Position numbers and translations under genes: made by a program. A stretch of DNA of 64,000 nucleotides from an uncultured Clostridia bacterium (GTDB lineage: Bacteria > Bacillota > Clostridia > Christensenellales > UBA1242), in NCBI GenBank assembly GCA_944362965.1, contig CALVTR010000002.1:16145-80144 (forward strand), read 5' to 3'. Numbering within the stretch: position 1 is the stretch's first letter; each line of letters opens with the position of its first letter. The notes under the pieces are model-generated. The model was not told where the DNA came from. It did no database searches and saw nothing but the letters and a program-made list of their open reading frames with translations. Below, piece after piece: positions 2,661-57,984 of this stretch.

Positions 2661-3728
2661 TTAGTGGGTTGAGACTAATTTGAATGATACTCGCTCTTCC
2701 TCTTCGTCCTTTGAGAGAACTTCAACTTCTACCTGCTGGTCAAGTTTGACAATCTCATAAATTTGTTTATTGTTTGCTTCGGTTGCATTCTTGATATGAA
2801 GAAGTCCTGTTGCACCATTTTCAAGTTTTATAATTGCTCCAAACTGCAGTATTTTTACAACCACGCCCTTATAGATTGCACCAACATGGAGTTCTTTTAT
2901 TGCAAGAAGGCGCGGGCTTTCTTGAAGTGCTTTAAGGCTTAGAGCAACCTTTTTATTTTCTCTATCAACTTCAATAACTTTGAAATTATACTCCTGCCCT
3001 TCTTTTATAACTTCGTCGGGTTTGCCAATCCTTGAATAGGACATATTTGAAATATGAATAAAGCAGTCAACACCGCCAACGTCTACAAAAGCACCAAAGG
3101 GAAGTATCTTCTTTACTTTTCCGCGAACGACCTTATTGATAAAAATTGAATTCCAAAAAAGTGTTTCATTTGTTTCTTTGATTTTATCTTCAAGAAGTTT
3201 GATGCTTGCTATGATTGATTTTTTGTCTTTATCAATCTCTGTTGCAACCGCTTCAAATTGTTTGCCAACTGTTCTTCTAACATCTTTTGTTGTGTGAGAT
3301 ATTTCAGCGATTGGGACAAACACTGAGTATTCACCAAGCTTTGAATAAAGCCCTTGTCTATCTGCGTTTGTTACAACAAAGGTGAATTTGCTGCCAAGTT
3401 TCAACCTGTTTGCATTTTGAGTAGCGATTGCTATGCCGTCTGCCATAGATTTCGACACGATAAGCATGCCATCATCTGTTTTGTTGTTTGTTATAAGCAC
3501 CTTAAATCTATCGCCTATTTTTAAATTGTCATAGTCATCGACTTCTTCTTTAGGCAGGTATGCGTCATTTTTGCCGCCTATATTAAAGATACAGCCATCG
3601 TCATGTTTTATTACCACAACGCCATCAAAGATTTGTCCACGTTTGTAGTTTGTAAACGTTCTATCAATCGCGGACATATCAAATTTTTCATCGGCAATTT
3701 GTGGTTTTGATTTGTTATTTTCTTCCAT
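2661..3728 (-). CDS. rpsA: S1 RNA-binding domain protein (ribosomal protein S1 homologue, 4 S1 repeats)
   Basis: Four repeats of the S1 pattern (G.I..G.V..I...G.F...G....G..H.S). Next to plsC, as in Firmicutes. Confidence 0.65.
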   Translation of the reverse strand: MEENNKSKPQIADEKFDMSAIDRTFTNYKRGQIFDGVVVIKHDDGCIFNIGGKNDAYLPKEEVDDYDNLKIGDRFKVLITNNKTDDGMLIVSKSMADGIAIATQNANRLKLGSKFTFVVTNADRQGLYSKLGEYSVFVPIAEISHTTKDVRRTVGKQFEAVATEIDKDKKSIIASIKLLEDKIKETNETLFWNSIFINKVVRGKVKKILPFGAFVDVGGVDCFIHISNMSYSRIGKPDEVIKEGQEYNFKVIEVDRENKKVALSLKALQESPRLLAIKELHVGAIYKGVVVKILQFGAIIKLENGATGLLHIKNATEANNKQIYEIVKLDQQVEVEVLSKDEEEERVSFKLVSTH

Positions 3729-3761
3729 GCTTTAAACCTCTATACTTGAAAGTTTATCATT

Positions 3762-4370
3762 TTATTTTTTCTTTGTCAAAGGATTCATTGCAAATTCTCG
3801 TAGTTCGTTCATTTTTGCAGTCACTATGTCCCCTGCTTTATTCATCTCTTCTTCAGTGAGTTTTTTGCCATAGAACTCTTCTAGCGTAAATGGAGTGCCG
3901 ACATATATTCTGTTACGTCTAAACATTTTAGGTTTCTTTGTTATAAAAATTGGAACGATTGGAACTTTTGCCTTGATTGCAAACATGGCTACGCCGTGCT
4001 TAACTTCACCAAGCTCCATATTCTCATTATGAACGCGTGTGCCTTCTGGGAAGATGACAAGCTTTTTATTGTTCTTTAGCACCTTAAGGCAATTTTTTAT
4101 TGCTGTGATATCATTTGCCTGTCTGTCAATCTGTATAGCACCAAACTTTCTTAAGAAAAAGCCCATAAATTTGTTTTTAAAAAGCTCTTTCTTTGCAAGA
4201 TAGTATTTTTTCTCCCAAGTTTTCACGGCAAGCATAACAGCGTCCATATTTGACGTATGATTGCTTGATAAGATACATGCACCTTTAGGTATATTTTTCT
4301 TCCCTATGATTTTAGTTGGAAATAACATCCTTATGAACAGTGCTAAAATTATTTGAACAAAATGAAACAT
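3762..4370 (-). CDS. plsC: 1-acyl-sn-glycerol-3-phosphate acyltransferase
   Basis: NHTSNMD (HxxxxD) and FPEGTR motifs. Start moved to the second Met (MFHFVQ), which has AAGGGGA SD. The track start at 4397 lacks an SD. Confidence 0.8.
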   Translation of the reverse strand: MFHFVQIILALFIRMLFPTKIIGKKNIPKGACILSSNHTSNMDAVMLAVKTWEKKYYLAKKELFKNKFMGFFLRKFGAIQIDRQANDITAIKNCLKVLKNNKKLVIFPEGTRVHNENMELGEVKHGVAMFAIKAKVPIVPIFITKKPKMFRRNRIYVGTPFTLEEFYGKKLTEEEMNKAGDIVTAKMNELREFAMNPLTKKK

Positions 4371-8724: not shown

Positions 8725-9309
8725 TTAGGTTTTATTTGTCTTAAGCTCTCCCGTTTTTGCAAGCTCTGCATGTTTCTTTTTGCTTAAAATGATTGCATTA
8801 AGTAAAGAATACACAACATCAAAAAGCGAAATTGACATTATAAGTTTCACTGCAAATTGACAAACTTCGCGGTTATAGGACACGGTGTCATTAAGTGATA
8901 ATGACGCGGTGGGTTTTTGATTTTTGACATTGGTCAAAAATATTGTTATTGCGAAGTTGACAAGCCCCGCAAGCATGGCGGATAGAAAGGCATCTTTGAC
9001 GCCGATATTATAAAACACTGAAATCTCTTTCAACCTTGTTTTATCTTTTATCTCCTGCAAGAGTGTTTCCATGAAAATAACTTCACTGCTTTGAAAGTCC
9101 ATTTCTTTTGTCTCTATTGCATCGTCACTTTTTGTTATAATCTTCTTTCCCTTAATCCAAAACTGCTCGTGCAGAAGCTTCTTTTTATACAAAAATACGC
9201 CCAGTGCACCAGAAAAATCAAGGACGTTAAAAGATACCCTTGCTTCAAGTTTTATTGGCAGGAAAAACAAAATTATTAGAAAAAATGGAATTAAAAGATA
9301 GTAGTTCAC
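8725..9309 (-). CDS. DUF2953/YtfI-like sporulation membrane protein
   Basis: N-terminal TM helix and position directly upstream of ytfJ, as in Bacillus ytfI-ytfJ. GTG start overlaps the gpr stop. Confidence 0.5.
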   Translation of the reverse strand: MNYYLLIPFFLIILFFLPIKLEARVSFNVLDFSGALGVFLYKKKLLHEQFWIKGKKIITKSDDAIETKEMDFQSSEVIFMETLLQEIKDKTRLKEISVFYNIGVKDAFLSAMLAGLVNFAITIFLTNVKNQKPTASLSLNDTVSYNREVCQFAVKLIMSISLFDVVYSLLNAIILSKKKHAELAKTGELKTNKT

Positions 9310-11740: not shown

Positions 11741-11883
11741 AATATTTCCTCCTATATTTTTATATTAGCAAATTTATAGAAAAAAACAAAATAAATTTAA
11801 GAAATGTTGATTTATTTATTAAAAATATTTAATTAAAACCACTTTCTAACTTGAATTTTTAAATATGCTCGAGCGAAGAAAAA

Positions 11884-11974
11884 GGCGGCGGAAGGAACGC
11901 AAGTTTTTGCGTTCCCATAATAAAACCGCATGGTTTTATTATGAAATTTTGTTTTCAAAATTTGTTCCGCCGCC
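11884..11974. other. closed four-way-junction structured element, copy A
   Basis: 10-bp closing stem GGCGGCGGAA/TTCCGCCGCC around three abutting perfect hairpins (9, 12 and 8 bp; loops GTTT, GCAT, TTTT). Confidence 0.7.
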
Positions 11975-12070
11975 CCTAGTTTCAATCAAGCACAAATACT
12001 TGTAAATTACCATATTTCTTAATTTTAATCAAATTAAGTTTTTATCACAAAACAACTAAAGCTAGACCTA

Positions 12071-22849: not shown

Positions 22850-23725
22850 TTATGATCTGAGACTTATATCTATCGTGCAATTTTCAGTGATATTTATGAT
22901 AGCATAATAGTAAACATATGTAGTGTGTGCATCAGCACTATCTATAATTTCATTATCTATATATAAAATCACTCTTCCTGTATGAATATCTATCACAGAC
23001 TCAAAGCCATAAAAGGTATTTTCAGATGACCAATCAATTTCGTTAACATAAGATTCAAAGTTAGTAGGACCATTATTATATACTATAACACAAATCTTAG
23101 TATTTATTGGAACTGAAATCGTCGTATCTATAGGATTGCTAGAACTAGCACCTGTTTCTATTATTTCAGTATTTCCTTCACCAATTATATAAGCATCAAG
23201 CATATCACCTTGCAAGGTCACTTGAATGCCGGGATCTACATATTCTATAAAGCTTAGTGCTATGTCATCTAAAGTGACACTTGTTGTGCCTGTGTAGGTT
23301 ATAGTTAAGGTTATTGTGCCGGAGATTGTCGGCGTTGTGGCTACGTCTTCTACTGGGGTCGAATTGCCTGTGATTATGCCTGAAATTTCTAGACTTGCGT
23401 TTTGCAAAACTCTATCACAGGTTGCGGTGTAATCCGTTTCTGTGGTGTTTATCATATCTATTTCTATTGCGACAACACCTGAAGTGCTTTCTATGTTGCC
23501 TAAGTTTAAATCTAAGGTTGAATTTATATATCCTGGCATAAAGTTTTCTATTGTCTCTGATTGCAAGCGTATATCTTTAACATAGAGCGTGGTGTCTTCT
23601 ATATTAAAGTTTACTACCCCTTTTAGATTTATCGTTTGGCTTGCTGCATACACTCCAACTAGCAACATAGATAGCATCAACACAAAAGCTGATATTGCTG
23701 AAAATAATTTTACTTTTAGTGACAT
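22850..23725 (-). CDS. secreted/surface protein, unknown function
   Basis: 291 aa from MSLKVKLFSAISAFVLMLSMLLVGVYA (signal peptide; AAAGGAG SD). Thr/Ile-rich beta-like sequence. Shares a TLTIT...L.DI...I.EY..P segment with the 62557-64000 protein. Confidence 0.7.
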   Translation of the reverse strand: MSLKVKLFSAISAFVLMLSMLLVGVYAASQTINLKGVVNFNIEDTTLYVKDIRLQSETIENFMPGYINSTLDLNLGNIESTSGVVAIEIDMINTTETDYTATCDRVLQNASLEISGIITGNSTPVEDVATTPTISGTITLTITYTGTTSVTLDDIALSFIEYVDPGIQVTLQGDMLDAYIIGEGNTEIIETGASSSNPIDTTISVPINTKICVIVYNNGPTNFESYVNEIDWSSENTFYGFESVIDIHTGRVILYIDNEIIDSADAHTTYVYYYAIINITENCTIDISLRS

Positions 23726-23754
23726 ATTATAAACTCCTTTTTCTTGATTTTTAC

Positions 23755-23871
23755 GAGTGGCTTTGCCGCGAGAAGGCACAAAAGGCTGACGAGCCTTTTA
23801 GAAGGCAAAGACTTTTGCCTTCTTGTGCATTTTTCCCAAAATGCACATGCCTTCTCGCGGTAAAGCCGCTC
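23755..23871. other. closed four-way-junction structured element, copy B
   Basis: 24-bp closing stem (23755-23778 / 23848-23871, two G-T pairs) around hairpins 23780-23799, 23800-23823 and 23824-23847 (8, 10 and 10 bp; loops GACG, GACT, TCCC). An extra hairpin lies at 23874-23895. Confidence 0.7.
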
Positions 23872-23906
23872 GCGATAGACGCTGACGCGTCTATCTTTAT
23901 GCTATT

Positions 23907-23934
23907 AGTATACCCCCCCCGCAAACCACGTCAA
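23907..23934 (-). promoter_or_regulatory. sigma-A-type promoter (TTGACG-16-TATACT) whose spacer contains a G8/C8 homopolymer
   Basis: -35 at 23929-23934, -10 at 23907-23912, C8 tract at 23913-23920 abutting the -10. Confidence 0.55.
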
Positions 23935-24061
23935 GCAAATTTAACAAATTTTTTAAATTTTTTTAAAATTTTTTTGTTTTTGGAGATTTTTATACAATAA
24001 TGCCCAGTTTACTTGACCTAAGTTGGTCACATTTTTCGTATTTTGAGATTTTTTATGCATC

Positions 24062-24093
24062 AAAAAAGCGTTAGCGGATGCTAACGTTTTTTT
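24062..24093. terminator. bidirectional intrinsic terminator
   Basis: AAGCGTTAGC-GGAT-GCTAACGTTT stem flanked by A6 and T7. Downstream of the M55 peptidase gene. Confidence 0.75.
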
Positions 24094-29905: not shown

Positions 29906-32900
29906 ATGAGAAAGATTTTTAAAATTCTGTCTTATTCACTTTTATATTTGATTATTTCAGTGGCATCAGCTTATGGTGTCATAACTATTTCAATGAATAA
30001 TTACACGAACGAGCAAAATTCAACTAGCTCTGGCGGCTCCACTGAAGAGACTGTTATAGCAGAAGAAATTTCCACAATGATAAGCAATATCACAAACTCT
30101 AGTGCTTTGGGGCTTGAACTTGAGATTGAAATAGGTGCTGATGGGCAAAACTTTGAGATTGGCGTCGACGGCGAAATCGACCTTTCTAATGGTTTTGAGA
30201 ACTTGGCAGTAAATGCTGATATAAATATTGCATTTAGTGAGAATAGCTCTTTTGATATCGGCGTTATATATAAGGATGGCAACCTATATTTTGAACTTTT
30301 GAACAATAAATTCTTTATAGCAACCGACAATTTGATGACTTCACTTAGTCAAGTGTTTGGACTTCTTGGTGTTGAGATGCCTGAGCTTGGCATTGATTTG
30401 GACTCGCTTAGCCTTGACAGCATTCTTGGTATGCTTTCTAACTTTGAAAAAGTGAATGGTGAAGACGGCTTGCTTGTGCTTCAAGTGGCTATTCCTGTTG
30501 TAAATCAAATTGACCTTATCTGCACAACCGACTATACACTAACCGGGCTTAGCCTTCCTAAGACTTCTATTGAAGGTATTGAACTTGCTGTAAACGGCAA
30601 TGTAAGTTACCCTGAGGAAGTTGTAATTGATAGTGTTGACAGTAGTGATTATATTGACCTTACTAATGTTATTGACCTTGCGTGCGGGCTTATTGACTTT
30701 ATCTCTCAAGACCAAATTGGGCTTGAATATAATGTAAGTTATAATGATTTGACGATTGCTGGCCGCATCGACGTTGATTTAAATAATATCTCAGCTAAAA
30801 TTACTCTTGCTCTTGGTGATTTAAATGCAAATATAATATATCAAAATGGCATGCTCTACCTTGAAGCTTACAATATCTATGCTAAGTTTGATATTGGGCA
30901 GATTGGAGATGTTTTGACATTGGCTCAAAAATACTTTGACGTTGAGTTGCCTAATGAGCTGATTGCTAGCATTGTGTCTGCTATTGAAAGTGGTGATTTT
31001 AGCGGAATACTTGACAGTGTTGAGCTGCCTGAAATTGACCTTTCTTCTATCGACCTTTCAATACTTGAAAGCATTGTGAAGAATGGTGACACAACTTCTA
31101 TTACAATCACTGATATTGGCAAAATTGACGTGACTTTAAGTGAAGGCAAAATAGCGTCTATTGGATTTGATGGTTTTGGCGCTATGGTTGATGTTAATGT
31201 TTCTAACTATAGCGGATTTACTCTAACTGCCCCTGCTGAAAGCTATATTGATATTGGATTGCTGCTTCCAACGCTTGATAACGTGCTTGCAATTCTTCAA
31301 AACAACACATTCTCTGGACAGATAAATATTGTCTATGGGGAATATCAATTTGACATTGATTACACTATTCACACGCGTGAAGAAAACAGCTTTATCACTC
31401 TTTCAACTAGTGTGTTTGGGCAAGATATTAAGGTAAATATATTAAATAATAAAGTTTACATTGAAATAAGTGAGACTAAGCTTATTTGTGACCTTAATAA
31501 CCTTGAAAATGTTATTGGTAAAGTGCTTGATGCATTTGGAATTGAATTTGATAGTTCTTCTATAACTAGTGGACTTAAGGACTTAATCAATAGCGAAATC
31601 AATCCACTTTTAATTACAGGTCTTGTTGAAAATGAAAATGGTGTAACTATTGTTTTACTTGATAAACTGGCAATAACTTTAACAAATGGCTCTAGCGAGC
31701 TTAAGATTGATGTAAACTATCAAGACTTGAAGGTTAGCGGCAATGTTATAGGAAGCATACAAGAACTTACAGCCCCAACCATTGATGAAAGTGAGTACTC
31801 ACCTATTGAAGATATCGTTGACAGTGTGATAAATGTATATAACTACGTTTTAGCTAAGACTTTCTATCTAAGTTTTGATGCAAGTTATCAAGATATTGCT
31901 ATAGTTGGTGCGTTAAACTATGATGAAAGCGGGCTTTCTCTTACTGCAACACTGAGCTATCAAAACTTAACTGCAAATGTTATGCTTTCTGAAAACAAAG
32001 TTTACATCACTGCAGAAAACATCAAGCTTGTGTTTGACTTAAATGACATTGATTATGTTAAATCCTTCTTAAATGACTACTTCGGTGTTGATGTTGAAGG
32101 CATGCTTGATGAAATTTTAGGCAAAGTTGGAATTAGTCTTGATAGTAGCAATGATTCTAGCAACTTAATTTCGGACATCTTAAGCGGAATTGACCTTGAG
32201 ACTATCATAAGCGGTGCAAGCTTTAATATCTCATCTGACACAATCACTCTTTCTGCTCTTGATGGACTTAATGTCAATATTGCTCTTGAAGAAAATATGA
32301 TTACAAGTATTTCTCTTAGCTACAATATTTCAAGTGAAGAACAAACTGCGATTTCAGCCAATGTTACAATTGAAAATTCAAAAAATGAATTTTCTATTGT
32401 AAATGAAAGTGAATATATTGATGTTATTGAACTTCTTGATATTGTAAAAGCTCTCATTGACTTTGCAAGTCAAGACCAAATGGCTGTAAATTATCAAGTT
32501 AACTACAATGATGTAGATGTAAATGGAAAAATTGACTTAAATGTTGCAGAGAAATCCGCAAAGATATCAATCAATATAAATGATTTAATGGCAAACATTA
32601 TCTATGAAAGCGGTTCGCTTTATCTTGAAGCTTACAACATCTATGCTAGGTTTGATATTGGGCAGATTGGAGACGTTTTGACCTTGGTTGAAAAATATTT
32701 TGATGTTACACTGCCTAATGAGTTGATTGCTAGCGTTGTATCTGCTATTGAAAGTGGCGATTTTAGTGGAATACTTGATAGCATTGAACTGCCTTCTATT
32801 GACCTTGGCTCTATTGACCTTTCAATACTTGAGAGCATTGTGAAGAATGGTGACACAACTTCTATTACAATCACTGATATTGGCAAGATTGACGTGACTT

Positions 32901-35900
32901 TAAATGAAGGCAAAATAGCGTCTATAGGTTTTGATGGTTTTGGCGCTGTGGTTGATGTTAATGTTTCTAACTATAGCGGATTTACTCTAACTGCCCCTGC
33001 TGAAAGCTATATTGATATTGGATTGCTGCTTCCAACGCTTGATAACGTGCTTGCAATTCTTCAAAACAACACATTCTCTGGACAGATAAATATTGTCTAT
33101 GGGGAATATCAATTTGACATTGATTACACTATTCACACGCGTGAAGAAAACAGCTTTATCACTCTTTCAACTAGTGTGTTTGGGCAAGATATTAAGGTAA
33201 ATATATTAAATAATAAAGTTTACATTGAAATAAGTGAGACTAAGCTTATTTGTGACCTTAATAACCTTGAAAATGTTATTGGTAAAGTGCTTGATGCATT
33301 TGGAATTGAATTTGATAGTTCTTCTATAACTAGTGGACTTAAGGACTTAATCAATAGCGAAATCAACCCACTTTTAATCACAAGCTTTGTTGAAAATGAA
33401 AATGGTTTGACTATAGTTTTACTTGATAAACTTACAATAACTCTCACAAATGGCTCTAGCGAGCTTAAGGTTGATGCAAGTTATCAAGACTTAAAGCTGA
33501 GTGCAAACGTTATTGGAAGTGAGCAAGAGCTTTCTGCTCCAGCCATTGTTGAAAGTGAATACACACCTATTGAAGATATTGTTGACAGTGTGATAAATGT
33601 TTATAACTACGTTTTAGCCAAGACTTTCTATCTAAGTTTTGATGCAAGCTATCAAGATATTGCTATAGTTGGTGCGTTAAATTATGATGAAAGTGGGCTC
33701 TCTCTTACTGCAACACTGAGCTATCAAAGCCTATCTGCAAATGTTATGCTTTATGAAAACAAAGTATATATCACAGCAGAAAATATCAAACTTGTGTTTG
33801 ACTTAAATGACCTTGAATATGTTAAGACATTCTTAAATGACTATTTCGGTGTTGATATTGAAGGCAAGCTTGATGAAATATTAGGCAAAGTTGGAATTAG
33901 TCTTGATAGTAGTGATAGTGGCAATATGATATCTGACATTTTAAGCGGACTTGACCTTGAGGCTATCATAAGTGGTGCAAGTTTCAATATCTCATCTGAT
34001 GCAATCACCCTTTCTGCTCTTGATGGACTTAACGTGAATATTTCCCTTACAGAAAACATGATTGACACAATTAGTGTTGAGTATATGCTTGTAAATGGAG
34101 AAAATAGCTCGCCTATCAGTGCAAATATTAAAGTTGAACAAATCGCAAGTATCTTTAACCCTGTTGGAGATTATACTGATATTACGACTATATTAGACTA
34201 CGTTGGACTGCTTTTAGATTATGTTAGCACAAAACAGATGCAATTTGGCATTGCGGCAAGTTATGGTGATATAAATGTTGAAGGTAAAATTCAACTTGAT
34301 TTAACTTCTCAACTTCTTATGAGTGCTAGTCTAAACTCAAATGACATCGACAACTTTGATATTTCTGCAAATATTGAAGACGGAATGCTCTACTTTGATT
34401 ATAGTGGGCTCTGCTTAAAGATTGATAACAACAACTTTAAAGAGCTTCTCGTTATTGTGCTTGAAGTTCTTGGAATTGATGCAAATAGCATACCTTTCCT
34501 TGAAGATATCGACCTTGACCTTGATTTCTCTCAAATTGAAACTGACATTGCTTCGCTTGAAATAAGCATTGACGACATAGTAAATATCTTGAAAATGGTG
34601 AAGAAAATTGACGTGACAGGAGACAGTCTTGATATTATTCTTGACGGAAAGGCAATCTATAACAATGAAAACGCAAGTGACCTTACAATCTCTCTTATTA
34701 AAGAAAATGGTGCTATTAAGTCTTTGACGCTTTCTAATATATATCTTGATGAAACGCTTGAAACAAAGATTGACGCTACCCTTACTTTTGAAACGCTAAG
34801 TGATTTTGCTTATGTTGATCAAACCAAAAATTATATTGATATTTCAGGCTCTAACGAGCTTATCAAGGCTCTTATCAATATGACAACTGATACTGACTTC
34901 CATGTTCAAGGTTCATTTGATATCTTGGGTTCGCTTGCTGGTATTGATATCTCTTGGAACGTTCCATTTGATATCAAAATCAACGTTGTGGGCAAAGGTG
35001 ACATTGAACTTTATGGCGTGGTTGGAGAAATCCCGACTATGATTGGCGTTAATAACGACGTGCCTTATGAGTTTGGTGATACTGAAAGTGGCTCTGACAG
35101 ATACCTATATATCTACTATAAGGATGGCTATATCTATCTTTATAGAAGTGAAAAAGTTGATATCATGTTTGGCGCTAGCTATAGAACTTATGAAAAGAGC
35201 ACAAAAATTTCAATAGACACCTTCCTTGCTGACCCTATGTATTATATTCAATACTGCTTTGGTTTTACTGACACTATTATGAATGCAATTATTGAGTCTA
35301 TGAACAATCCACGCACGGAGCCGATGGACTTTGGCAACATTATTAAGTCTTTCACTGTTCAAGATAATAAGAACTTCACGATTGACCTTAATATGCATGA
35401 GCTTACAAACAACCCTGACCTTGACAGTCTTATTGTTTCACTTGGAATTGAACAGACTGCTGAGGGAAAGAACTATGTTGGCAAACTGCAACTTAGTCTT
35501 TACATGCCACTTGCTGATATATTCACACTTACCCTATCAACGAGCGATGCTCAAATTGTTGACTATGGAACAGAAGTTGATATGAGCCCACTTTATGACT
35601 TTATTAATAACTATCAATACGCAAGCGAGACAGAGTGGGAAGCAAGCAATGGCAACTGGCAGATGTCTGGGGAAATACTCTATCAAATAAATTTTGAAAC
35701 AAATTGCGACGAGACGCTTGAGTCACAAAGTTATCATTATAAAGATAGTTTAGCTCTGCCAACACTTTCTGACTATGTTGTTGACGATGGGCTTACACAT
35801 AAGAGTTATCACTTTGCGGGTTGGTTTGAAGATGAAACTTTCTTGACACAATTTACAAGTGATACAATGCCTAGAAAAGATATGACCTTATATGCTAAGT

Positions 35901-36892
35901 GGGAAGTCGTAACACAAAACTACTATACAATAACCTTCGTTACTAATAGTGATGATAAAATTGATAGCATAACTAAACTTGAAGGCGAAAGTATAGATAT
36001 ACCTAGCCTTACAACTAAAGAAATTACTGAAAGTAACTTCACTTCTTACTATGAATTTGGTGGCTGGTTTACAACTGAAGATTTTGAAGAAGGGTCGCAA
36101 TTCAACTTAACCGCAATGCCTTCTCAAAATACCACCCTTTATGCTAAGTGGAACTTAATTAGAACTGAGTATACACGCTCAGTAAACGTCTATGATGGCG
36201 ATGAACTTTTGGCTACGCTGCGTGTTAAAGTTGGAGATACAATAGACTTCTCGTCTATAGAAAAGGTCAATGAGACAACTAAGTTCTATCTTGACAAGTC
36301 TTTCACAGCAGAGATGACCGACTTTACAATGCCTAACAATGACCTTGATATCTATATCAGAAATATGTATACACTGACCTTTACAAGTGATTATGGAAAC
36401 ACTGAAACTGTTATAGTGCATCTCTATCAAGGCGAGCAAATAGAAGTTCCTGTTCAAAGTAGTTATGTTTTTGATGACGGGCAAACCGCTAGAATAACAT
36501 ATACTTTCAATGGCTATAATAGCGATATAGTTATGCCAAATCATGATACAACCTATAGTGCAGATTGGACCGTTGATGAAAAACATTATTACACAGTTTC
36601 ATTTGACCTGAGATGGTATCTTGTTATGGGTTGCACAGCTGGTAGCAAGATGAAAAATTCGCCTTCTCCTATTGATTCATTCAAGGTTTTAGAGGGAACA
36701 ACTATTGACTTAACGCAGTATGCTCCAACCTGCACAGCATACTTGACTGCAATTCCAATAGACGCAAAGAACTTTAAAGCAACGTCTTGGGGAACAAGTG
36801 CATGGGGTGACTACACTTCTGGTGGAAGCGGTTTCACAACAATTACTATCACAGGTGACACAACCTTATATGCTTGCTGGGAAAGAGTTTAA
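29906..36892 (+). CDS. 2,328-aa N-terminally anchored surface protein: about nine ~190-aa modules plus five C-terminal Listeria-Bacteroides (Flg_new-type) repeats
   Basis: AAGGAG SD. Signal-anchor ILSYSLLYLIISVASAYGVITI. C-terminal repeats carry F.GWF...MP...LYAKW. Uninterrupted ORF. Confidence 0.85.
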   Translation: MRKIFKILSYSLLYLIISVASAYGVITISMNNYTNEQNSTSSGGSTEETVIAEEISTMISNITNSSALGLELEIEIGADGQNFEIGVDGEIDLSNGFENLAVNADINIAFSENSSFDIGVIYKDGNLYFELLNNKFFIATDNLMTSLSQVFGLLGVEMPELGIDLDSLSLDSILGMLSNFEKVNGEDGLLVLQVAIPVVNQIDLICTTDYTLTGLSLPKTSIEGIELAVNGNVSYPEEVVIDSVDSSDYIDLTNVIDLACGLIDFISQDQIGLEYNVSYNDLTIAGRIDVDLNNISAKITLALGDLNANIIYQNGMLYLEAYNIYAKFDIGQIGDVLTLAQKYFDVELPNELIASIVSAIESGDFSGILDSVELPEIDLSSIDLSILESIVKNGDTTSITITDIGKIDVTLSEGKIASIGFDGFGAMVDVNVSNYSGFTLTAPAESYIDIGLLLPTLDNVLAILQNNTFSGQINIVYGEYQFDIDYTIHTREENSFITLSTSVFGQDIKVNILNNKVYIEISETKLICDLNNLENVIGKVLDAFGIEFDSSSITSGLKDLINSEINPLLITGLVENENGVTIVLLDKLAITLTNGSSELKIDVNYQDLKVSGNVIGSIQELTAPTIDESEYSPIEDIVDSVINVYNYVLAKTFYLSFDASYQDIAIVGALNYDESGLSLTATLSYQNLTANVMLSENKVYITAENIKLVFDLNDIDYVKSFLNDYFGVDVEGMLDEILGKVGISLDSSNDSSNLISDILSGIDLETIISGASFNISSDTITLSALDGLNVNIALEENMITSISLSYNISSEEQTAISANVTIENSKNEFSIVNESEYIDVIELLDIVKALIDFASQDQMAVNYQVNYNDVDVNGKIDLNVAEKSAKISININDLMANIIYESGSLYLEAYNIYARFDIGQIGDVLTLVEKYFDVTLPNELIASVVSAIESGDFSGILDSIELPSIDLGSIDLSILESIVKNGDTTSITITDIGKIDVTLNEGKIASIGFDGFGAVVDVNVSNYSGFTLTAPAESYIDIGLLLPTLDNVLAILQNNTFSGQINIVYGEYQFDIDYTIHTREENSFITLSTSVFGQDIKVNILNNKVYIEISETKLICDLNNLENVIGKVLDAFGIEFDSSSITSGLKDLINSEINPLLITSFVENENGLTIVLLDKLTITLTNGSSELKVDASYQDLKLSANVIGSEQELSAPAIVESEYTPIEDIVDSVINVYNYVLAKTFYLSFDASYQDIAIVGALNYDESGLSLTATLSYQSLSANVMLYENKVYITAENIKLVFDLNDLEYVKTFLNDYFGVDIEGKLDEILGKVGISLDSSDSGNMISDILSGLDLEAIISGASFNISSDAITLSALDGLNVNISLTENMIDTISVEYMLVNGENSSPISANIKVEQIASIFNPVGDYTDITTILDYVGLLLDYVSTKQMQFGIAASYGDINVEGKIQLDLTSQLLMSASLNSNDIDNFDISANIEDGMLYFDYSGLCLKIDNNNFKELLVIVLEVLGIDANSIPFLEDIDLDLDFSQIETDIASLEISIDDIVNILKMVKKIDVTGDSLDIILDGKAIYNNENASDLTISLIKENGAIKSLTLSNIYLDETLETKIDATLTFETLSDFAYVDQTKNYIDISGSNELIKALINMTTDTDFHVQGSFDILGSLAGIDISWNVPFDIKINVVGKGDIELYGVVGEIPTMIGVNNDVPYEFGDTESGSDRYLYIYYKDGYIYLYRSEKVDIMFGASYRTYEKSTKISIDTFLADPMYYIQYCFGFTDTIMNAIIESMNNPRTEPMDFGNIIKSFTVQDNKNFTIDLNMHELTNNPDLDSLIVSLGIEQTAEGKNYVGKLQLSLYMPLADIFTLTLSTSDAQIVDYGTEVDMSPLYDFINNYQYASETEWEASNGNWQMSGEILYQINFETNCDETLESQSYHYKDSLALPTLSDYVVDDGLTHKSYHFAGWFEDETFLTQFTSDTMPRKDMTLYAKWEVVTQNYYTITFVTNSDDKIDSITKLEGESIDIPSLTTKEITESNFTSYYEFGGWFTTEDFEEGSQFNLTAMPSQNTTLYAKWNLIRTEYTRSVNVYDGDELLATLRVKVGDTIDFSSIEKVNETTKFYLDKSFTAEMTDFTMPNNDLDIYIRNMYTLTFTSDYGNTETVIVHLYQGEQIEVPVQSSYVFDDGQTARITYTFNGYNSDIVMPNHDTTYSADWTVDEKHYYTVSFDLRWYLVMGCTAGSKMKNSPSPIDSFKVLEGTTIDLTQYAPTCTAYLTAIPIDAKNFKATSWGTSAWGDYTSGGSGFTTITITGDTTLYACWERV
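30650..34171 (+). repeat. two tandem in-frame repeats of 1,764 and 1,758 bp inside the giant gene
   Basis: Units 30650-32413 and 32414-34171 (aa 249-836 and 837-1422). 31185-31602 is identical to 32949-33366 (418 bp) by direct comparison. Confidence 0.9.
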
Positions 36893-36906
36893 TTAATTTA
36901 AATAAC

Positions 36907-36942
36907 AAAAAAATAACAGAGAATTATCTCTGTTATTTTTTT
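36907..36942. terminator. bidirectional intrinsic terminator
   Basis: AAATAACAGAG/CTCTGTTATTT stem with A- and T-runs, between the giant gene and minE. Confidence 0.8.
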
Positions 36943-37171
36943 AAAATGGTATGTAGCCATAGGGTTTTATGCGTTCGGCAGAGAACTCTATGAAAAATAT
37001 GTTCTTGTTTTTGTCTTTCTTAAACCGCACTTTTAGGTCGCTATTTAATTCTATATAGCTTTCAATAAGCGGTTTAAGCTCATCTTGCAGCACTTCGCAT
37101 ATGTGCTGCGGGTCTGGCATTTTATCATTTTTTAAGATATTATCTATTCTTTTTGCTATTCTATATTCCAT
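36941..37171 (-). CDS. minE: cell division topological specificity factor MinE-like
   Basis: 76 aa. C-terminal pattern LKPLIESYIELNSDLKVRFKKDKNKNIFFIEFSAE parallels the MinE topological domain. Downstream of minD. AAAGGAG SD. Confidence 0.6.
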   Translation of the reverse strand: MEYRIAKRIDNILKNDKMPDPQHICEVLQDELKPLIESYIELNSDLKVRFKKDKNKNIFFIEFSAERIKPYGYIPF

Positions 37172-37241
37172 TGTTTTCTCCTTTTATATTTATTTTTTAA
37201 TAAATCCGCATGAAAAAACTTGAGCTTTAAATAAAACTTTG

Positions 37242-37424
37242 GGCGGAGCAGAAAAAGGCACAAAAGCGTGAGAGTAGCACTCACAAAAGAAAGCAAACTT
37301 AAGAATAAAAGCAAACTTATCAGCCCTTAAATGGTGAACATGCAAGGTTACAGGTCTACGCATGCTTTCTTTTAAAAAATTAAATGAAATTTAATTTTTG
37401 CTTTTGTGCCGATTGCTGTTTGCC
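37242..37424. other. closed four-way-junction structured element, copy E (expanded)
   Basis: Closing stem GGCACAAAAGC (37257-37267) / GCTTTTGTGCC (37400-37410). Hairpins 37268-37284, 37285-37373 (11-bp base with a 67-nt insert) and 37375-37399. An outer second stem pairs 37242-37251 with 37416-37424. Confidence 0.65.
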
Positions 37425-52807: not shown

Positions 52808-52899
52808 GCTGCTCGGAAATGCCACTTTGAAAAAGTGGCAAAAGTTGCCTGAAGGGCAACTTTTTAAAATTTTAAATTAAAATTTTATTTCCGAGCAGC
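52808..52899. other. closed four-way-junction structured element, copy C
   Basis: 13-bp closing stem GCTGCTCGGAAAT/ATTTCCGAGCAGC around hairpins 52821-52839, 52840-52864 and 52866-52886 (8, 10 and 8-9 bp). Confidence 0.7.
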
Positions 52900-52983
52900 G
52901 TGCTTACCTAAGAAAAAGGTTGTGTCATGACTGCAAGCCCTGAACAACAAAAATATTATATTCTACCTTATAAACTTACTATT

Positions 52984-53012
52984 ATTATACAATAAAAATT
53001 TATATATTGCAA
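52984..53012 (-). promoter_or_regulatory. sigma-A-type promoter (TTGCAA-17-TATAAT)
   Basis: -35 at 53007-53012, -10 at 52984-52989. Gives a leader of about 220 nt that contains copy C. Confidence 0.55.
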
Positions 53013-57710: not shown

Positions 57711-57856
57711 ATTTTTAAATTTAATTATTTTTTAAATTTTTATTTTATTTTTACAATTTATTTTTATCTTTATTTATTTATATCCTTTATTTTTTATTTA
57801 GTTATATTTAATAATATTTTTTTATTTATATTTTTTAATAAAACCGCATGAAAAAA

Positions 57857-57941
57857 GCTCGGAAACGCATGCCATAGGCTTGCAAAAAGAAAGTTTCTAC
57901 TTTCTTTTTAAAAAATTGATTTATCAATTTTTGTTTCCGAG
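57857..57941. other. closed four-way-junction structured element, copy D
   Basis: 10-bp closing stem GCTCGGAAAC/GTTTCCGAGC around hairpins 57867-57883, 57884-57909 and 57910-57931 (7 bp with one T-T, 11 bp, 9 bp), with zero junction nucleotides. Confidence 0.7.
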
Positions 57942-57984
57942 CAATTTATAAAAAACAATATTTTTTAGCGACTATTTAAATTTA

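Follow-up and report, generated by a model that had tools for sequence, protein, structure and literature searches.

REP, BIME, Correia and BOX are examples of dispersed structured repeats in bacteria, which influence the stability of mRNAs, transcription termination, operon polarity and genome rearrangement. To our knowledge, these repeats are single hairpins or long imperfect stem-loops with a conserved sequence. The REP element is a single imperfect hairpin of 20–40 nt, conserved in sequence and headed by GTAG, that RAYT transposases mobilise; REPs are transcribed within mRNAs, where they act as decay barriers or terminators. Bacterial miniature inverted-repeat transposable elements (MITEs) are non-autonomous and share transcripts with genes, some are modular or mosaic, and they are marked by near-identical copies, target-site duplications, likeness to a parent insertion sequence and one long imperfect hairpin. 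Multi-hairpin mobile palindromes are found in spacers of AT-rich genomes as the chytrid and other fungal mitochondrial double-hairpin elements and the yeast mitochondrial GC clusters, and in these the structure is kept over the sequence. REP elements are reviewed in PMC2817692 and PMC3184786, and bacterial MITEs that fold as RNA are treated in PMC3184786 and PMC2229807. Described here is a family of intergenic elements in a 64,000-nt stretch of DNA, termed the window, from an uncultured Clostridia bacterium (assembly GCA_944362965.1, contig CALVTR010000002.1, positions 16,145–80,144). The element under study, copy A, consists of 91 bases between clpC and hpf (11884–11974) that form a near-perfect cross of four helices, a closed four-way junction. 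The reading preferred here, to which we give about an even chance, is that copy A belongs to an abundant, lineage-specific family of dispersed structured repeats that serve as structural blocks in transcripts.

The closing stem of copy A is a 10-bp helix, evident both in the sequence and in the fold, between GGCGGCGGAA (11884–11893) and TTCCGCCGCC (11965–11974). It encloses three perfect, abutting hairpins: the GC-richest at 11894–11915 (9 bp, loop GTTT), a middle one at 11916–11943 (12 bp, loop GCAT) and an AT-rich one at 11944–11963 (8 bp, loop TTTT, 10% GC). Along the minus-strand genes the AT-rich hairpin comes first and the GC-richest last. The sole unpaired base of the junction is G11964. 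An initial interpretation made from the DNA without database searches, the sequence-only reading, had described this stem, the three hairpins and the single unpaired base, and the description is exact in the sequence and in the folds: the minimum free energy and centroid structures (ViennaRNA) of both strands are precisely the four-way junction. The three clamped hairpins allow either strand on its own to form a junction with almost no gaps. The RNA folding energies of the two strands are −50.7 and −49.5 kcal/mol (z −9.8 and −10.5), a stability that none of 200 shuffles reaches; DNA parameters give −38.5 kcal/mol (z −13.4). Copy A begins 97 nt past the clpC stop codon and lies upstream of an hpf promoter-like site on the minus strand, and nothing else in the clpC–hpf spacer resembles a terminator of the minus-strand genes. 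On the gene strand the closing stem is followed at once by the T-run TTTTTCTTC (11875–11883, minus), which the sequence-only reading had also pointed out. It is a possible U-tract for the clpC operon, and it also sits in an internal loop beneath a weaker second-tier outer stem. That the structure could terminate clpC, and that termination alone does not account for it, both still stand in the light of the analysis.

Four further sites in the window had been proposed to hold the same layout, always intergenic and always in one orientation. All four fold as four-way junctions, copy C in a degenerate form; all five window copies are intergenic, and the recurrent family in a single orientation is supported. 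The coordinates were slightly off at two sites, where copy B runs from 23754 to 23872 rather than from 23755 to 23871 and copy E ends at 57942 rather than 57941. Copy B (23754–23872, minus; z −12.5) has a 25-bp closing stem and hairpins of 8, 10 and 10 bp. It is in the 5′ leader of a 291-aa secreted-protein gene (22850–23725), 28 nt before the ATG, and downstream both of the canonical terminator of dppA itself (24067–24088) and of a promoter-like TTGACG-N16-TATACT. This promoter-like sequence (23907–23934) and a small leader hairpin (23874–23895) make up a block at 23874–23934 (minus) that is duplicated in front of copy H, which is described below. Copy C (37242–37424, minus; z −4.3) has a two-tier closing stem, that is, an inner stem GGCACAAAAGC (37257–37267/37400–37410) plus an outer stem, and in all strains about 60 nt are inserted in the loop of its middle hairpin. 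The inner stem is followed by TTTTTCTGC (37248–37256, minus). Copy C is found between minD and a 76-aa gene, and the canonical terminator of the operon is farther on, at 36906–36943.

Copy D (52808–52899, minus; z −9.1) displays a closing stem of 12–13 bp (GCTGCTCGGAAAT) and three perfect hairpins. A conserved promoter-like TTGCAA-N17-TATAAT (52984–53012) is found ~85 nt upstream of it, and the ATG of a 307-aa gene follows after ~50 nt. Copy E (57857–57942, minus; z −8.2) has the closing stem GCTCGGAAAC/GTTTCCGAGC and three hairpins, one of them with an A.A mismatch. It is located between the convergent tadA and 161-aa genes, 43 nt after the latter, and is followed by TTTTTT (minus); its spacer has no other structure or terminator-like site for minus-strand genes. 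The closing stems reported earlier for the copies at 52808 (GCTCGGAAAT/ATTTCCGAGC) and 57857 are as claimed, and so is the lack of a T-run at the copies at 23754 and 52808. An AT-rich, AAAATT-like hairpin next to the 3′ arm was said to be present throughout, but the hairpin of copy B is only mildly AT-rich (38% GC, TGTGCATTTT...). A location at gene ends likewise does not extend to two window copies, B and D: each occupies a 5′ leader and is preceded by a promoter-like site that relatives or paralogues have conserved.

The proteins at the window ends led to a further ~18 kb of sequence from this species. The 8 kb beyond coordinate 64000 (locus L148) contains three further perfect four-way junctions, copies F, G and H, all of them accepted by the strict filter described below, with closing stems GGGCGGAAAGCTT in F, CGCAAGCGAATGG in G and CAAGAGCGAATGT plus about 12 more, bulged pairs in H. 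Copy F is between divergent genes, copy G follows a peptidase M1 gene, and copy H, which shares one spacer with G, mirrors copy B in a leader. The family, originally seen as having five members, is thus real and larger: eight elements are found in ~82 kb of this species, or about one per 10 kb. They are confined to spacers, in 3′ regions, in 5′ leaders, between cistrons and once between divergent genes.

Sliding-fold analysis of the window yields six fold windows beyond −3 standard deviations, among them A, B, D and E but not C; A, B and D are the three most stable. A structure filter on RNALfold output was chosen for the scans, as MAFFT does not align divergent copies by structure. The strict filter accepts a closing stack of ≥6 bp, ≥3 branches that are all uninterrupted hairpins and ≤4 unpaired junction bases. 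Over the whole window it returns A, B and D only; a relaxed filter adds copy E and one weak candidate within a coding region. No strict four-way junction is found in eight block-wise dinucleotide shuffles of the window (512 kb), whereas strict three-way junctions are at the chance rate, with one in the real window versus ~0.9 per shuffle. It is thus only the layout with three hairpins that is in excess, and neither the window nor the scanned loci contain a five-way junction. An imperfect three-way structure at 8861–8990 (−42.6 kcal/mol), within a conserved 194-aa open reading frame (8725–9309), is probably a chance structure since three-way junctions occur at the shuffled rate.

Relatives were sampled as 80 greA loci from other species. 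Strict four-way junctions number seven per 313 kb in close Clostridia relatives (L013, L018 and L022) and one per 452 kb in other Clostridia (L038), and the control loci, mostly from Bacilli, gave one weak coding-region match in 619 kb. Further copies, which the idea of a family called for, are thus present both in the same species and in relatives. In L013, a tandem array of four ~148-nt units is found downstream of clpX (3616–4190), each unit consisting of a 73-nt junction and a 75-nt linker, and another copy is 20 nt past rlmH. The junction in L038 (8746–8828) is GC-rich and wholly gap-free, and is situated between two cistrons of a Clostridiales metagenome-assembled genome (MAG) with 51% GC; it starts 5 nt past a stop codon and lies ~10 nt ahead of the AAGGAG of the next gene. 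The layout is therefore not restricted to AT-rich genomes.

The copies also share sequence. As a background, random pairs of 210-nt windows share ≥12 nt in 0.7% of trials and ≥14 nt in 0.15%. Copies D and E have in common both closing-stem arms, GCTCGGAAA...TTTCCGAGC, and the junction CTTTTTAAAA. Copies C and E have in common the arms of hairpin 2, the junction TTTTAAAAAATT and a 3′ flank of 37 nt (92% identical, E 9e-10), which reads TTTTTTCATGCGGATTTATTAAAAAATAAATATAAAA in C (37182–37218, minus) and TTTTTTCATGCGGTTTTATTAAAAAATATAAATAAAA in E (57820–57856, minus). The mosaic sharing first noticed between copy A and the copy at 57857 is confirmed as a 15-mer: AATAAAACCGCATG of hairpin 2 in A recurs in the left flank of E. 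On the minus strand, the loop and 3′ arm of the middle hairpin of A, CATGCGGTTTTATTA, are identical to the copy E flank, and this hairpin looks like a palindromised copy of the C/E flank. The closing stems fall into subfamilies, with AGCGAATG in G and H, GGCACAAAAG in B and C, and GGCGG..GAA in A, F and the outer stem of C; G, H and element L013c have GCAAGCGA-type stems in common. Copies A and C share a GCC-TTTTTCT motif in the internal loop of the two-tier stem, and upstream of B and H is a promoter-and-leader duplication, 95% identical over 119 nt. These shared segments, taken against the random background, show the copies to be related by descent. The heptamer CCGCATG was considered as an enriched motif and dropped, with four sites versus three expected; significance is reached only by the longer shared segments.

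The single hairpins of the junctions match the layout of the bidirectional terminators of this genome, about a dozen of which are ordinary ones in the window: an A-run, a perfect stem of 9–17 bp, a short loop and a T-run. At the site orthologous to copy E in L011 (5725–5775), a plain hairpin is found, with arms AATAATTATTGAC and GTCAATAATT, loop AAGTATTTATGCG and a T-run after it. In this L011 hairpin, the loop and 3′ arm are similar both to hairpin 2 of A and to the flank CATGCGGTTTTATT of C and E. There are hints in these likenesses that junctions arose at or beside older terminator hairpins.

Between species the positions of the elements differ. The clpC–hpf spacer is 330 nt long in the window species, copy A included, versus 56–82 nt in five sister lineages (Hpf 86–91% identical), where it has the hpf promoter-like sequence only and no hairpin. 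Copy D is absent from the spacer between greA and the 307-aa gene in L011, L012 and L013, with the promoter-like TTGCAA-N17-TATAAT kept there. The site of copy E in L011 is ~150 nt with one plain hairpin. After rlmH, a four-way junction is present in L013 versus a plain terminator in the window, and no four-way junction is found in 120 kb of sister loci around hpf. As copies are missing at orthologous spacers, the elements are not conserved cis-regulators of particular genes and behave like dispersed repeats. Conservation in relatives, a point on which the sequence-only reading was to be judged, is thus of a particular kind: relatives carry their own copies elsewhere, but the orthologous sites of sister species have none. 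Judged by these comparisons, the family is a fast-turning-over dispersed repeat rather than a conserved non-coding RNA gene.

Within the species the junctions are maintained. The four-way junction of copy A is invariant in 8 sequences, copy D in 10 and copy B in 6. No variable column among strains is found in 302 inside A, B and D, versus 30 in 920 in the flanks, events that are not fully independent. In the segment 40–60 nt upstream of A (12005–12035, minus), a 10-nt indel and ~10 single-nucleotide polymorphisms split two haplotypes, L002 and L004 versus the rest. Copy E has two alleles among strains, and variable columns amount to 16% inside the junction versus 28% in the surrounding spacer. 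The allele changes were enumerated by hand, since the gap placement of the alignment conflicts with compensated insertions. On the gene strand, the AT hairpin is AAAAATTGA-TAAA-TCAATTTTT in one allele and AAAAATTTGA-TAAA-TCAAATTTTT in the other, with one base inserted in each arm. The middle hairpin, AAAAAGAAAGT-AGAA-ACTTTCTTTTT versus AAAAAAGAAAGC-TCAT-GCTTTCTTTTTT, differs by one additional pair, a T:A to C:G change and a new loop. In the GC hairpin a single change separates the A.A mismatch of allele 1 from a T:A pair in allele 2, and the innermost pair of the closing stem is present in allele 1 and lost in allele 2.

A similar turnover is seen between paralogous and tandem copies. Copies B and H occupy the same position in paralogous leaders, and each has three perfect hairpins on a long closing stem. 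Their outer 5′ arm, CGAGCGGCTT..., is common to both, yet their hairpins are unrelated in sequence. The first unit of the L013 array has the closing stem and linker of units 2–4 but other hairpins 2 and 3. The view that pairing is kept through double changes is thus upheld by the copy E alleles and the B/H leaders, and these comparisons of sequence show base pairing to be kept while the sequence turns over. Pairing could be kept by selection on RNA, by palindrome correction through template switching of DNA, or by both. The correction of quasipalindromes by template switching is a described mechanism (PMC7202029, PMC3820800), and it would account neatly both for the compensated insertions and for pairing that is almost purely Watson-Crick. 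Only 8 of 547 predicted junction pairs (1.5%) are G.U, versus ~3% in the canonical terminators of this genome. The asymmetry between G.U and A.C was tried as a means of naming the functional strand and given up: imperfect pairs are too few, and 1.5% is not clearly different from ~3%.

The elements also have a polarity. In ~12 of 14 elements, the AT-richest hairpin leads along the adjacent gene and the GC-richest is usually at the end; counted here are the L022 element and, when assigned to its nearest gene, copy F, both of which are opposite to the majority strand. The genes of the window are mostly on the minus strand, as are all neighbours of the five window copies except the gene for a 2328-aa protein and tadA, and by GC skew the minus (gene) strand is the leading strand, so that the orientations of transcription and replication are confounded for most copies. 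The polarity weakly favours a tie to transcription over a tie to the replichore. A T-run after the closing stem is found in three of the eight copies of this species, A, C and E, all of which follow the 3′ end of a gene; B, D, F, G and H have none.

On the preferred reading, the family has a lifestyle akin to that of REP/BIME elements or MITEs, and its unit is one of three terminator-like hairpins clamped by a GC-rich closing stem. The unit would be transcribed within neighbouring mRNAs, where the compact junction would act as a structural block. Joined to a U-run, the junction may form an intrinsic terminator, as in copy A after the clpC operon and copy E between convergent genes; where the U-run is lacking, in leaders and intercistronic spacers, it may act as a barrier to exonucleolytic or 5′-end-dependent decay. 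Position, polarity, T-runs and the analogy with REP are the grounds for an RNA role, and some copies are probably terminators or RNA-decay barriers. Spread and homogenisation would take place at the DNA level, by duplication or recombination between copies and by palindrome-correcting template switching. At the locus of copy A, a gain of ~250 nt in this species put a junction and TTTTTCTTC between clpC and the hpf promoter. The most likely consequence is that hpf is uncoupled from read-through of the clpC operon, which the sister lineages appear to allow.

Several observations weigh against this interpretation. The T-run directly after the stem is found in only three of eight copies and in no clear copy of the relatives, and the T-runs of A and C, which belong to a shared two-tier stem, may be an inherited part of that stem and not independently selected. 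Copy F is between divergent genes and, as read by eye, apparently upstream of both promoter-like sites. Copy C is decaying: besides its insertion, a 76-nt deletion covers the 3′ half in 2 of 11 sequences (L101 and L105), and one sequence (L104) has a pair-breaking polymorphism. Watson-Crick stems on both strands are equally expected from a purely DNA-level process, and a count by hand gave four wobbles in the outer stems of B and C, which are plus-strand G.T pairs and hence A.C mismatches on the gene strand. Transcription, 3′ ends and effects on stability are all matters that we infer. Mobility, for its part, is deduced from shared segments and from presence or absence only, and there are no near-identical copies, target-site duplications or transposase in ~82 kb.

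The simplest alternative, an ordinary terminator region in which both the adjacent hairpins and the complementarity of their flanks are due to chance, can draw on the resemblance of the single hairpins to the normal bidirectional terminators of the genome and on the T-run that follows copy A at the end of the clpC operon. It is very improbable. Perfect closing stems of 10–25 bp recur at eight sites, the copies share sequence, and the sister species manage without any hairpin in the clpC–hpf spacer; the absence of strict four-way junctions from 512 kb of shuffled sequence and the copies in 5′ leaders downstream of promoter-like sites exclude a mere terminator cluster. A second alternative places the function, if any, entirely in DNA. 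The elements would be junctions, formed in single-stranded DNA of the lagging-strand template, of transposition or of conjugation, or as double cruciforms, that serve as substrates of a structure-specific recombinase or HUH-type transposase; or they would be purely selfish palindromes whose perfection is due to template-switch correction. Their spacer positions would reflect tolerated insertions only. Both strands fold equally well, also with DNA parameters; the stems are almost wholly Watson-Crick (8 G.U in 547 pairs), although the canonical terminators, at ~3% G.U, are nearly as much so. The compensated single-base insertions in both arms of copy E are what template switching at a quasipalindrome produces (PMC7202029, PMC3820800), hairpin 2 of A is like a palindromised C/E flank, the closing-stem subfamilies resemble terminal inverted repeats, the L013 copies form a tandem array, species differ in the sites occupied, and copy F is between divergent genes. 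However, no target-site duplications or conserved flanking cleavage motifs are found, no transposase or recombinase gene is present in ~82 kb, and no presence/absence or inversion polymorphism is seen among the 5–11 strains per site. Template switching alone, moreover, leaves unexplained the three hairpins, the gap-free junctions and the AT-to-GC polarity that follows the genes. A purely DNA-level element is unlikely on balance, but is to be taken seriously.

A third possibility is that the shape itself is read: the elements would be dedicated, shape-specific RNA elements whose perfect junction, rather than the sequence, guides a protein or nuclease from this clade, for general transcript punctuation, processing or protection. 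The partner could be a junction-binding or double-stranded-RNA-specific enzyme, or the tRNA-processing enzymes, which might treat the elements as cloverleaves, and the elements could have spread by benefit to the host. Such a reader would fit the strictness of the layout, always three hairpins with 0–3 unpaired junction bases in the strict set, with three-way junctions not enriched and five-way junctions absent. It would fit as well the junction kept at the same position in the B/H leaders despite full turnover of the hairpins, the compensated changes between the E alleles, a polarity that tracks the local gene direction, and the GC-rich version between two cistrons in a 51% GC genome (L038). 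The idea is nevertheless rather doubtful, as orthologous sites are not conserved even where the flanking proteins are ~90% identical, copy C is decaying, loops and junctions have no conserved bases that could mark a binding site, ARAGORN and the Rfam tRNA models do not recognise the elements, and no candidate partner gene was identified. That the elements represent a categorically new class, either a shape-defined, sequence-independent signal of transcript boundaries (for 3′-end formation, leader processing or intercistronic punctuation) with a dedicated reader or the structured end of a new single-stranded-DNA mobile element, is an unlikely though not a negligible prospect. If true, both forms would parallel REP/RAYT or tRNA punctuation with a four-way junction, something not known in bacteria. 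A protein that reads the shape would amount to a new recognition principle for bacterial RNA or single-stranded DNA; if the pairing is kept only by DNA palindrome correction, the family would be a striking natural example of that process building complex structures.

The surroundings of the elements are of interest in their own right. The window (35.5% GC) encodes McsB/ClpC, Hpf, the GPR spore protease, YtfJ, MinD, MreB, GreA, RNase J and GroES/EL. The nearest species-representative MAGs are uncultured gut Clostridia with GreA ≤92% identical, and proteins identical to those of the window are found on many human and animal gut metagenome contigs. The elements sit in leaders of apparently phase-variable surface-protein genes and between the stress genes clpC and hpf of abundant uncultured gut bacteria. 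The promoter-like TTGACG-N16-TATACT upstream of copy B (23907–23934, minus) has in its spacer a poly-G run (23913–23920) of 7, 8 or 9 G across strains. Its duplicate, with the leader, is at ~6950–6985 of L148 and precedes a paralogous open reading frame (MSLKVKL...) just past the window end. A family of secreted or surface proteins appears to be phase-variable here through slipped-strand changes in the poly-G run. The independent metagenome contigs L114, L116 and L117 end at the start of the promoter/leader block duplicated between B and H (window ~23935–23985), and L120 ends ~50 nt earlier; these are probably assembly breaks induced by the repeat, at the duplicated promoter and not at the junction. 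The 2328-aa protein (29906–36892) contains Flg_new/Listeria-Bacteroides repeats and is variable in length, being called as 1741 aa in some conspecific strains. Beside copy D and antisense to its leader, a 22-codon open reading frame (MTASPEQQKYYILPYKLTIIIQ; 52927–52995, plus) with an AAAAAGG site in front of it is probably spurious.

Searches of known families bear out, within their scope, the view that the class had not been described: no Rfam match, phage or plasmid BLAST match, tRNA call or paper was found. With Rfam 15 at the gathering threshold, the whole window yields only tRNA-Thr (2429–2501); at E ≤10 on the spacers of A and B, the best scores are 9–21 bits versus thresholds of 34–382, with E ≥0.5. 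ARAGORN finds the same tRNA-Thr only and no tRNA-like gene. A tRNA-like cloverleaf was rejected as no detector calls it and the arms and loops are unlike those of tRNA: the junction arms are 8–12 bp and the loops 3–5 nt with no conserved loop bases. A 'distant' blastn search with copy A gave no match in plasmid or phage collections. The D/E closing-stem pattern has 16 chance matches in viral contigs, none of them a junction, and in JGI metagenomes the matches listed are long simple palindromes, chance matches and the D+E locus itself (L255). Full-text literature searches on repeats of four-way-junction or cloverleaf form, and on branched terminators, brought up no paper on elements of this kind. 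An integron attC site was rejected on account of the bulge-free four-way junction, the housekeeping neighbours and the lack of an integrase, and an invertible promoter on account of the same orientation in all 5–11 strain sequences per site. The raiA motif, expected near hpf/raiA, is comparable in that copy A is upstream of hpf, but no match is found at the gathering threshold or at E ≤10, and copy A is on the clpC side, upstream of the hpf promoter-like site.

Among described repeats, MITEs such as Correia/NEMIS, BOX, RUP and ERIC are similar in being intergenic and in having terminal inverted repeats, and the closing stems of the elements, grouped in subfamilies, are shared, perfect inverted repeats of this type. 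Near-identical copies are lacking, however, any two copies sharing short segments at most, and the flanks of 14 elements have no direct repeats at the stem borders and no conserved sequence. The pair GGCTTACGCC/GGCTAACGCC that flanks H was considered as a target-site duplication and is better explained by the bulged outer stem of H. Bidirectional terminators have the same layout as each single hairpin, and A (TTTTTCTTC), C (TTTTTCTGC) and E (TTTTTT) have the intrinsic-terminator form of a T-run after a GC-rich stem. A terminator needs one hairpin, whereas here three are clamped by a fourth helix, and five of eight copies, B, D, F, G and H, do not have the terminator form; B, D and H are in leaders, where termination would silence the gene. 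The mitochondrial double-hairpin elements differ from the four-way junctions in being organellar and in having two hairpins without a closing stem, and nothing points to a relationship.

The REP/BIME repeats are alike in several respects: both are extragenic, are palindromic on both strands, are found at 3′ ends and between cistrons, have species-specific positions and can form clusters or arrays. REP copies are many per genome and often clustered, to which the eight copies in ~82 kb, with G and H in one spacer, and the tandem array of L013 may correspond. The elements described here differ in size (73–120 nt), in having three hairpins within a closing stem and in their low sequence conservation. 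No shared head motif of the GTAG/GTGG type is present in their flanks or stems, and no RAYT (TnpA-REP) Pfam family member is found among the genes called in the fetched loci. Since REP/BIME, MITEs and bidirectional terminators each fail at least one defining test, the elements are not equated with any of them. In kind they are dispersed structured intergenic repeats, in a closed four-way-junction form that is uncatalogued in the resources searched. What is conserved here is a higher-order shape, the gap-free four-way junction, while both its sequence and its genomic positions turn over between sister species.

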